Positions 22,279-33,479 of a DNA stretch of 35,982 bases are shown one piece after another. The notes under the pieces were generated by a model that had not been told where the DNA came from, made no database searches, and worked only from the letters and a program-made list of their open reading frames with translations. Each line of letters begins with the position of its first letter. The first letter of the stretch is position 1. Origin of the DNA: Promethearchaeota archaeon (GTDB lineage: Archaea; Asgardarchaeota; Lokiarchaeia; Sigyniarchaeales; SOKP01); contig JBHLLT010000007.1 of assembly GCA_048938855.1 (NCBI GenBank), forward strand, positions 98,163-134,144, written 5' to 3'. The translations under genes were made by a program, and so were the position numbers.

Positions 22279-22437
22279 ATGTCCGCTCATAAATTAAAAC
22301 CAAAAGATCTAACTATTTGTAACAAATGCGGAAACGTCATGGTAAACAGAAAAATTCGAGTCAATCATTCTGATGAAGTAAAATTCCAAAAAGTTTTACA
22401 ATGTATTGTTTGTCGTTATTGGATAGCTCAGGATTAA
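22279..22437 (+). CDS. Small zinc-ribbon protein (52 aa), missing from ORF track
   Basis: MSAHKLKPKDLTICNKCGNVMVNRKIRVNHSDEVKFQKVLQCIVCRYWIAQD* with two CxxC motifs (CNKC, CIVC). Confidence 0.75.
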   Translation: MSAHKLKPKDLTICNKCGNVMVNRKIRVNHSDEVKFQKVLQCIVCRYWIAQD

Positions 22438-22526: not shown

Positions 22527-22684
22527 TAAAGAAAAGGAAGGGATTGGAAATCCAGCCAAAAAATTTAAAATCAGGGAGAGAATTAAACTCGAACGAGTTT
22601 AATAGAGGGCGAATTTTGGCAAATGTCCGAATCGGGCCTAAATTTGCATCCAATGTAATGGCTAGATCAATAGGATCCCTTCTT
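22527..22684 (-). ncRNA. Candidate structured ncRNA (~150 nt), family not recognised
   Basis: Locally GC-enriched intergenic island. Nested stems GAAGGGAU/AUCCCUUC, AUCUAGCCA/UGGCUGGAU, GCAAAU/AUUUGC, AAAAUU/GAUUUU and AUUAAACUC/GAGUUUAAU. TATA box upstream and U-rich 3' end. Confidence 0.65.
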
Positions 22685-22701
22685 AACTAGAAGTAGTATC
22701 T

Positions 22702-22714
22702 CTATATATAAAAA
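22702..22714 (-). promoter_or_regulatory. TATA box for the candidate ncRNA
   Basis: TTTTTATATATAG on the minus strand, centred ~25 nt upstream of the 5' GAAGGG at 22682, the canonical archaeal spacing. Confidence 0.55.
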
Positions 22715-22847
22715 CCATAGTATTATATTTTATTTATGTTACGATGTCCAGTACAATACAATTTGGGTAAAAAATTAAAATTTTTGTACAAAATCTTGCT
22801 TAATAATTTTAATAACTATGTAATATTACTTTAGAAGCAAAAAAATC

Positions 22848-23654
22848 TTATTTCAATAATTCCTCAATATTTATTTTTAGCCCGTCTTCTGCTGCGACAA
22901 TATTTTTAATATCTGTACTTTCTTGGAGTTTTTTTACTTGACTAGGAACATAATTTTTTATCGACCTAGGACCGTCCATAGATGACCCGAAGTGAGTGAT
23001 GATAAGACCATTAAGAGTAGGGTTAATCTTGTTAAGATAGGGGATAACTTCATCAGTACATAGATGTCTTTTACAAACGATTGAGTTTGGTCTTAAAAGG
23101 TTAAGAATCAAAATATTACATCCTGAAAATTCTTCAGAAAATCCAGGATAAACCATAGTATCACTGGTAAATGCTATAGAATAGTCTTTAAGGCAAAACT
23201 TTACTCCGAAACCTTCATTGTTGGGTGAATGGACTGTCTTTGTACCAATAATCTCTACACCTTTATAATTGAATGTATCTCCTGTCTTAAATTGTATGAC
23301 TTCTTTAAGCATGTTTAAATGGTAATCAGAAATATATTTAAGGACTTCTTCGGTAGTAATTAGAATACCTTTTTTAAAGTAATTATAATTTTTATCATGT
23401 AAAATTTCTCTCGAACTTTCAATAACAGCACTTAAGTCGCTATAATGGTCAACATGGCCATGGGTAACAATGAAAAGCTCTGTTTTTACAGGATCTTCTT
23501 TATATTGATTAATTCTTACGATAGCTCCAGGTCCAGGATCTACATGAGCTTGAATATTATTAAATTTGTACAGAATTCCTCCTGTAGCTCTATATTGTGT
23601 TCTAATATGATGGCGTCCGCCTCCAGAACCAAGGATAATGATTTCATCAGCCAT
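22848..23654 (-). CDS. MBL-fold hydrolase, RNase Z/PhnP-like archaeal family
   Basis: ILGSGGGR, HVDPGPGA, THGHVDH, TVHS, FTSDT, HL and THFG motifs. Start ATG 23654 or 23663. Confidence 0.85.
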   Translation of the reverse strand: MADEIIILGSGGGRHHIRTQYRATGGILYKFNNIQAHVDPGPGAIVRINQYKEDPVKTELFIVTHGHVDHYSDLSAVIESSREILHDKNYNYFKKGILITTEEVLKYISDYHLNMLKEVIQFKTGDTFNYKGVEIIGTKTVHSPNNEGFGVKFCLKDYSIAFTSDTMVYPGFSEEFSGCNILILNLLRPNSIVCKRHLCTDEVIPYLNKINPTLNGLIITHFGSSMDGPRSIKNYVPSQVKKLQESTDIKNIVAAEDGLKINIEELLK

Positions 23655-23681
23655 GTTAACCATTTATATCATAAAATGCGG

Positions 23682-24200
23682 TTAATATTTACTTATTTGC
23701 ACTAAATTTTTAATTAAAGTTTCAAATACTTTTTCGATGTTATTACCAGTTTTAGCTGACGTTTTAATGTAATCTATCATATTAAAAGTATATTTTAGAT
23801 GAAGGGCACTATCATCATCTACTGCAATTAAATCTTCTAGATCTAATTTAGTTCCTACGAGCATAATAGGCAAATTTATATCATGTAATCGAGCGATGTT
23901 TACCCATTCTAATATATCATTAATGTGTGGCATTCGAGTTAAATCGATTAAAAGAAGTGCTGCCCTTGCCCCCATTACAAAATTTTCAAGGAGGTATCTG
24001 AATCGTCTTTGACCTCCTAAATCCCATAATTGGAGGAGACAACGTGTATTATCGAAGAAAAGCTCTTTGGTAAAAAAATCTGCTCCAACTGTCATCACAG
24101 TTGAATCATCGAACATCCCATCTACATATCTTCTTAGAAGAGAAGTCTTACCTACAGCAGCATTACCAGTAATCAAAATTTTAAAGATATAATTTTTCAT
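23682..24200 (-). CDS. Rab-like small GTPase
   Basis: FKILITGNAAVGKTS, TVGADF, LQLWDLGGQ, GTKLD and TSAK motifs; no C-terminal prenylation motif. ATG 24200 preferred over GTG 24245. Confidence 0.9.
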   Translation of the reverse strand: MKNYIFKILITGNAAVGKTSLLRRYVDGMFDDSTVMTVGADFFTKELFFDNTRCLLQLWDLGGQRRFRYLLENFVMGARAALLLIDLTRMPHINDILEWVNIARLHDINLPIMLVGTKLDLEDLIAVDDDSALHLKYTFNMIDYIKTSAKTGNNIEKVFETLIKNLVQISKY

Positions 24201-24285
24201 GCTTGAATGGGTAGATATTATAATAAGTGACAAATGCAAAACCACTTATTTATTTTAATACTTTAAAATATACGACATTTTAGAT

Positions 24286-33125: not shown

Positions 33126-33139
33126 ATTTAAGTAAAATA

Positions 33140-33300
33140 AAGAAAGAAAAAAAAACCTTGGGATTTCAATTTATCGCCATTGATTTATTAATAAAATATA
33201 AAAGGAATTTAAAAAATTGTGAATGAGGGACAATATTGAATCTCTTTAAAATTGGAGGGTGAGGGTCTAAAGCAACAACCAGCGGCAATATACTGATTTC
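33140..33300 (-). ncRNA. Possible structured RNA or leader element
   Basis: Long-range stems AUUGCCG-C-UGGUU / AAUCA-A-UGGCGAU and UCAGU/AUUGA, with G-U pairs that favour the minus strand. Three CCCUC motifs inside; ends in a U9 tract. Confidence 0.4.
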
Positions 33301-33479
33301 AGAATTATTAAAAGATTTTTTTGATGGATCTAATAGTATTAAATAGAGTTAATTGATTCTATCTATTATTTATACACTTTCAATGATTTCTTTCAATAAT
33401 CTATAAAAGAAAAATATTTTATATTAACCGTCTTATTTCATCATTAATTTTAACTTAAATGCAAATTTAATGAGAAAAA

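Follow-up and report, generated by a model that had tools for sequence, protein, structure and literature searches.

Small RNAs that act in trans through a C-rich seed resembling the anti-Shine-Dalgarno sequence are the described systems with which the locus presented here is best compared, and as examples we take RsaE/RoxS of the Firmicutes, Yfr1/Yfr2 of the cyanobacteria and sRNA41 of Methanosarcina. In bacteria, small RNAs with C-rich seeds mask ribosome-binding sites or compete for them. Asgard archaea are the closest prokaryotic relatives of eukaryotes, and to our knowledge very few of their non-coding RNAs are known beyond the universal ones.

We analysed a stretch of 35,982 nucleotides from a Lokiarchaeial genome (the window), in which the minus strand at 22528-22684 almost certainly carries a genuine and previously undescribed small RNA gene. 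It represents a well-supported new RNA family, which almost all genomes of a single uncultured Lokiarchaeial family possess. The covariance model, the predicted ends and a defined candidate module offer a handle on RNA-based regulation in Lokiarchaeia, and the tempting view of this RNA as a forerunner of Sm or Y RNPs is corrected.

Position, fold and promoter of the RNA gene

The candidate RNA is about 157 nt long, runs from 22684 to 22528 on the minus strand and occurs once in its own genome. The helices, loop, GUUC cap, TATA box and tail claimed in a preliminary description of this DNA were all found in place on the minus strand. The overall shape is that of a rod, in which P1 and P2 are followed by the ACAUUGGAU junction with the optional P3, then by P4, an 8 x 9 internal loop and P5. 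The features are the following:

22721 to 22752, minus strand: putative distal promoter element, core ...GAYAT...AACATAA..., about -75 to -40 before the RNA start
22703 to 22714, minus strand: TATA box TTTTTATATATA, about 27 nt upstream of the predicted 5' end (first A of the RNA)
22528 to 22684, minus strand: predicted mature RNA of about 157 nt, with model matches to 22527-22686 of 151 bits (R1) and 120 bits (R2)
22682-22675 with 22544-22537, minus strand: closing stem P1, 8 bp; 7 of 8 pairs changed on both sides, 95% of cells paired
22667-22659 with 22558-22550, minus strand: P2, 9 bp; compensatory changes in all 10 model pairs
22648 to 22656, minus strand: junction motif ACAUUGGAU, at least 90% conserved in the MAFFT alignment
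22619 to 22647, minus strand: P3, an optional inserted hairpin of variable length and sequence with compensatory changes; missing from the 125-135-nt paralogues
22617-22612 with 22572-22567, minus strand: P4, 6 bp, AAAAUU with GAUUUU; 5 of 6 pairs changed on both sides, many from A-U to G-U
22604 to 22611, minus strand: CGCCCUCU, 5' strand of the internal loop; conserved more strongly than any other element and invariant in alignment A1
22582 to 22603, minus strand: P5 hairpin, 9 bp with a GUUC cap; 99% of cells paired, rare compensatory variants
22573 to 22581, minus strand: 3' strand of the internal loop, UCUCUCCCU; pyrimidine-rich in nearly every member
22559 to 22566, minus strand: A/U-rich single-stranded linker; the Sm-like motif AAUUUUUUGG extends from it into P2
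about 22537-22528, minus strand: oligo-U/C tail CCUUUUCUUU, a C/U tract right behind P1 and a likely archaeal terminator

In the folding-energy control proposed with the preliminary description, the minus strand reached -41.4 kcal/mol against -27.7 +/- 3.3 kcal/mol for 200 dinucleotide shuffles, none of which was as good (z = -4.14); for the plus strand the advantage is smaller (z = -3.06). The minimum-free-energy fold retains P1, P2 and P5, and the full structure as first drawn lies, at -35.1 kcal/mol, about 6 kcal/mol above this minimum. Since P3 and P4 are not the thermodynamic optimum in the single sequence, they rest on comparative evidence and not on energy, and covariation in the relatives backs both. 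The internal loop of the window copy consists of pyrimidines except for one G; in the thermodynamic ensemble its 3' strand has a mean unpaired probability of 0.86 and its 5' strand is only about 50% unpaired.

Nearly all of the approximately 70 family members, and every paralogue type, have a T/A-rich box at -32 to -24 from the first base of P1, and the spacing of the TATA box fits an archaeal start site near 22684. A C/U tract follows immediately 3' of P1 in essentially all members. Both termini of the RNA are predicted from these signals: the spacing of the TATA box gives the 5' end (about 22684), and the U-tract gives the 3' end. In the paired columns of the model-fitted alignment described below, G-U pairs number 219 and A-C mismatches 54, and this bias, together with the TATA box and the U-tract, settles the minus strand as the RNA strand.

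About 80 nt of upstream sequence, including the distal element at 22752-22721, is conserved and accompanies the RNA gene where the orientation of the latter flips; the distal element itself is conserved 5' of the copies adjacent to an MBL-fold gene in several genera. Because the upstream block moves with the RNA and not with the neighbouring gene, the RNA gene is, to judge from sequence, a stand-alone transcription unit with its own putative promoter and U-tail. The AACATAA... block has no second copy in the genome, and none was found 5' of the RNase P or SRP RNA genes. Short-paralogue copies in two relatives (G012 and G018) have a common promoter block, unlike that of the window copy.

Two short ORFs overlap the RNA gene in the window, and we judged them not credible since relatives carry insertions of varied length and the substitutions track the base pairs. 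ARAGORN found no tRNA in the window.

Conservation, distribution and genomic setting

In an unfitted MAFFT alignment of 30 orthologues, in which the invariant core is visible, both sides have changed in 9 of 10 P2 pairs, and the covariation score was not equalled by any of 500 column shuffles. A model-fitted alignment of 72 distinct sequences is biased to its own fitted structure, and the unfitted alignment agrees with it; here 90% of the cells are paired, 33 of 41 pairs have changed on both sides, and sliding the partners by one column lowers the pairing to about 55%. The sequence of P1 is conserved.

The 5' loop strand is GCCCUCU in 131 of 132 parsed RNAs. The facing 3' strand almost always begins with (U)CUCUC and continues with further pyrimidines, its tail differing between paralogue classes, and the length of the apical loop is free (3-9 nt in the 132 RNAs). 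Across genera about 40 consecutive nucleotides are invariant, flanked by helices that covary freely. In most genera P5 is nearly invariant with few compensatory variants; in genus g28 it is wholly replaced by an unrelated helix and both loop strands are retained, a second species of that genus retaining the 5' loop strand only. The exchange of P5 with the loop kept indicates that the loop letters, above all GCCCUCU, are what selection protects. At the level of the alignments, selection is shown to maintain the helices as helices and the loop as letters (GCCCUCU opposite UCUCUC...).

The proposal of an undescribed stand-alone Asgard small RNA made in the preliminary description, which had called for a search for homologues, is borne out by relatives with compensatory changes in more than 100 genomes, together with the predicted promoter and U-tail. 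Within the genus, 35 of 36 genomes have the locus according to BLASTN. Within the same order, model R1 matched 116 of the 131 genomes of one family (f1) and none of the 19 genomes of three sister families; in a sample of the phylum, it matched 22 of 25 f1 genomes and none of 126 genomes from 26 other Asgard families. The broader model R2 matched 119 of the 131 f1 genomes of the order, spread over 13 genera with one to seven copies per genome, and none of the 19 sister-family genomes. Closed genomes of a sister family gave no match, and a divergent copy of the RNA was not found in a closed genome of sister family f2 beside an MBL homologue of 40% identity.

The core motif is present in more than 118 Asgard-labelled genome contigs and in more than 120 metagenome contigs (of at least 1 kb). 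The public records are Promethearchaeota/Lokiarchaeia MAGs (Loki_b31, Loki_b32, CP070805, CP070831 and others), a few being labelled as other Asgard phyla; viral contigs gave no match to the core pattern. One contig with the motif (L127, CAITKP010000037.1) is labelled as an uncultured Campylobacterales MAG and is probably a mis-binned Lokiarchaeial contig.

Rfam 15, against which a check had been advised, gave no match at gathering scores over the whole window, and at permissive thresholds the best E-values around the RNA were about 5-7, for unrelated families and well below threshold. The reported lack of SRP, RNase P, tRNA, C/D and H/ACA signatures was confirmed by Rfam, ARAGORN and motif inspection. 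Identity with RNase P RNA or SRP RNA was discarded, the genome having its own copies elsewhere (contigs C20 and C70). A C/D box sRNA was also discarded, as CUGA stands at the edge of P4 but there is no C box, and a K-turn or C/D reading of UGGAU with CUGA was rejected because the long form lacks a facing GA. A likeness to U5 loop I and to the 16S 3' end (GGAU...CCUC) was noticed by eye and judged not significant. A full-text literature search found no paper on the RNA family. From these searches, the family is uncatalogued and appears restricted to one family (f1) of Lokiarchaeia.

The window copy is the long, syntenic form that carries the P3 insert. In the short forms, of 125-135 nt, P3 is missing and ACAUUGGAU leads straight into P4 and the loop. 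These paralogues carry the GAUUUCGCCCUC core, and R1 and R2 unite them with the window copy at 60-166 bits by the GAUUUCGCCCUC-core rod, the 9-bp hairpin and the pyrimidine facing strand. The paralogues occupy unrelated gene contexts, each with its own TATA-type promoter.

Near-identical short paralogues of 130-133 nt were seen in G012 (contigs C16, C42, C64 and C76) and G018 (C4, C27, C34, C54 and C71), and assemblies often break within them. Genus g20 has a second paralogue of 155-158 nt, which measures about 130 nt in the g22 locus L108. At L100:1981-2199, L102:3021-3236, L112:4603-4824 and L108:3861-4088 a conserved convergent neighbour of 71-75 aa accompanies this second paralogue, with another ORF intervening in L112 and L108; in L112 a 489-aa protein with a HxHxDH-like MBL-type motif, recognised by eye, lies between the RNA and the 71-75-aa neighbour.

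In the genus of the window copy the RNA is part of a fixed block formed by a small GTPase, an MBL-fold protein, the RNA, a convergent 52-aa zinc-ribbon gene and an EamA transporter. The GTPase is Ras/Rab-like (23682-24245, minus strand; Pfam Ras, E = 5e-37), which fits the Asgard origin of the window. The MBL-fold protein (22848-23663, minus strand; 271 aa, Lactamase_B_2) has 61-87% identity across the family, no sequence match in the PDB and a remote likeness to RNase Z (E = 1e-10, far below the family cut-off). In the window the RNA gene follows the MBL gene after 160 nt in the same orientation, and one copy adjoins an MBL-fold gene in at least seven genera, with the orientation reversed in three. 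The CxxC...CxxC zinc-ribbon ORF (22279-22437, plus strand) converges on the RNA from about 90 nt beyond its 3' end, is 60-94% identical across the genus and detectable across the family, and has as its sole Pfam match a weak, sub-threshold one to DUF7479. In genus g19 both the MBL-fold and the zinc-ribbon genes are present, the RNA was not found and another ORF directly follows the MBL gene. Since both conserved neighbours occur in this genus, neither depends on the RNA.

A second structured element of the window, at 33130-33310 on the minus strand, folds no better than shuffles (z = +0.5), has patchy matches in 8 of 40 genus genomes and gave no covariance-model match. We do not think that it is a comparable RNA.

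Candidate functions of the pyrimidine loop

The reading that we prefer, tentatively and with clearly less than even confidence, is that the RNA acts in trans and docks by its anti-Shine-Dalgarno-like pyrimidine loop on purine-rich RNA. Action in trans is suggested by the paralogues, which lie in unrelated contexts and have a TATA-type promoter each. The loop would be the working part of the RNA and would dock on purine-rich, Shine-Dalgarno-like stretches of mRNA, where the docked RNA could mask ribosome-binding sites or compete for them; the A/U-rich linker and the U-tail would suit a chaperone of the Lsm/SmAP type.

Such docking is proposed because the loop strands resemble the anti-Shine-Dalgarno core and can pair with GGAGG/AGAGGG. 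The 16S 3' end of the organism is AUCACCUCCU, and the loop strands hold CCUCU and UCUCC, each of them one C-to-U change from the 16S core CCUCC and each still able to pair with GGAGG or AGAGGG. In the genome of the window the words GGAGG, GAGGG and AGAGG are enriched 4-6-fold before start codons, and this enrichment together with the likeness of the loop keeps the antisense idea alive.

A search for a long antisense target found no genomic complement above 10-11 nt outside low-complexity A/U runs. The complements of the loop are not specially enriched in the genome, which has no telomere-like AGAGGG repeats. There are 91 exact AGAGGGC sites, and of three candidate ribosome-binding sites examined two lie within longer ORFs and the third is plausible, its gene being absent from all 60 other family genomes searched. 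Against antisense docking, a seed enclosed on both sides by helices is badly placed to form long duplexes, and a block of about 40 nt in which no letter changes across genera looks more like the site of a bound protein than like a short antisense seed. The 5' loop strand of the window copy, about half unpaired in the ensemble, also counts against it.

Binding of a protein is nearly as likely as docking in trans. It is possible that the RNA is a scaffold or sponge whose loop, P5 base and ACAUUGGAU junction dock a dedicated protein (KH, S1, Lsm or zinc-ribbon, for example), and we regard with the same reserve the variant in which it would be the core of a lineage-specific RNP or would titrate the protein. 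The long invariant block between freely covarying helices argues for this, as does the lack of any nucleic-acid target in our searches; furthermore, beside P5 the loop strands face each other as U/U, C/C, U/U and C/C, possibly giving a regular non-canonical helix of a kind read by proteins. However, no protein gene co-occurs with the RNA: genus g19 has both the MBL-fold and the zinc-ribbon gene but yielded no copy of the RNA, and the neighbours of the other paralogues are unrelated. The full replacement of P5 in g28 also restricts the letters that a protein could recognise to the single strands.

A more daring and rather improbable reading is that an archaeal RNP of a new kind has the invariant two-sided loop as its docking pocket, programmable in appearance, which would hold purine-rich nucleic acid such as the Shine-Dalgarno-like AGAGGG from both faces, perhaps in a triple helix. 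If this were true, the RNA would represent a global RNA-based brake on translation initiation in a Loki-type Asgard lineage, or a new RNA-guided enzyme.

It is unlikely that the RNA is a guide whose loop forms a two-sided pocket for a substrate RNA, as in H/ACA RNAs, or for DNA, as in IS110 bridge RNAs, so as to position an enzyme. The geometry fits, since a lower and an upper stem enclose a two-sided loop with strands of 8 and 9 nt, and 15 nt separate the top of this loop from the end of the lower stem, the spacing of H/ACA RNAs. Moreover CGCCCUCUAU pairs over 10 bp, including one G-U, with a stretch of 23S rRNA; this complement, AUAGAGGGUG, lies in domain I (contig C18 of G000, reverse strand, index about 1458), but by a rough estimate chance alone would give such a match in about one of ten trials. 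The lower stem is not followed by an ACA box, the position holding AAA, AUU or UUU and ACA occurring in about 1 of the 72 listed linkers, and P5 is a perfect helix of nine uninterrupted Watson-Crick pairs with a variable loop of 3-9 nt and no K-turn or K-loop. The strict pattern of a two-part H/ACA-type target had no match in the genome, including its partial rRNA operon on contig C18, on which the rRNA tests are based, and all the loose matches were non-rRNA; the LSU model gave no match on the closed relative G006. The 5' loop strand is the same among paralogues, unlike in guides with different targets, and no transposase or recombinase is encoded nearby.

An Sm-class or Y-RNA-like RNP of eukaryotic type, in which the U-rich linker would carry an Sm/Lsm ring or the closing stem a Ro60-type protein, is very unlikely. 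Archaea encode SmAP proteins, and the preliminary description had drawn attention to an Sm site and to Y RNAs. The perfect RAU6GR match stands for the window copy, and all members have an A/U-rich linker and a U-rich tail beside the paired ends and the pyrimidine-rich loop. Conservation of the site across the family does not stand, as RAU4-6GR occurs in only 3 of 72 distinct members (13 of 72 if U3 is allowed). The Y-RNA analogy is not supported on the protein side, since no TROVE/Ro60 gene (PF05731) was found in the 97%-complete genome by a search that was positive for the Deinococcus and Bacteroides controls; no La gene was found in the genome either, in a search whose control likewise gave no match. 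The RNA was detected in one Lokiarchaeia family and in none of the 26 other Asgard families sampled, and this confinement to a single archaeal family argues against an ancestral RNP of eukaryotic type.

We give a still slimmer chance to a 6S-like RNA, whose rod with a central bubble would mimic open promoter DNA and bind RNA polymerase. In its favour are the rod shape, 125-185 nt in length, the closing stem and the bubble, the one or two copies per genome in most members and the syntenically stable position. Against it, the bubble measures only 8 x 9 nt and keeps its sequence, whereas in 6S RNAs it is the shape that is conserved and not the letters; in archaea, moreover, TBP and TFB recruit the polymerase on DNA.

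That the locus is not a free RNA gene at all, and instead a MITE, another DNA-level element or a cis part of the MBL or zinc-ribbon transcripts, is largely refuted and the least probable reading: some relatives do have up to seven copies, several of them at contig ends, and the gene does follow the MBL gene at 160 nt on the same strand, but the genome of the window has a single copy, at odds with the MITE named in the preliminary description, no terminal inverted repeats or target duplications were seen, the copies have their own TATA-type promoters and the G-U strand bias, viral contigs are without matches, and the promoter moves along with the RNA in the three genera where its orientation to the MBL gene is reversed.

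Comparison with described RNA classes

The RNA has in common with Y RNAs the paired ends, the pyrimidine-rich internal loop, the U-rich 3' end and a similar size. It differs from them in the lack of a Ro60/TROVE gene and of an Rfam Y_RNA match, and in that the conserved part is the loop and not the closing stem that Ro60 reads. The archaeal H/ACA guide RNAs share with it the succession of lower stem, two-sided pocket and upper stem as well as the 15 nt from pocket top to lower-stem end, whereas the ACA box, the K-turn or K-loop and the two-part rRNA target are missing here and the pocket strands are constant among paralogues.

With the triple-helix clamps of the ENE/MALAT1 type, the RNA shares an internal loop of two pyrimidine strands and a mirror symmetry, CCCUCU opposite UCUCCC. 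In principle this loop could hold a purine strand, AGAGGG, by Watson-Crick and Hoogsteen pairs, an idea that is purely geometric. Unlike these clamps the RNA has no purine-rich tail of its own, and the mirror symmetry is only partly kept in the paralogues.

Compared with RsaE/RoxS, Yfr1/Yfr2 and sRNA41, the motif of the RNA is displayed on both sides of the internal loop of a long rod and not in hairpin loops or linkers, the invariant block is far longer than a seed, and there is no sequence relation. Nevertheless it shares with these RNAs its own putative promoter and U-tail, the presence of one to several paralogues, and an invariant unpaired C/U-rich motif which is able to pair with ribosome-binding sites of the GGAG type while the scaffold around it varies.
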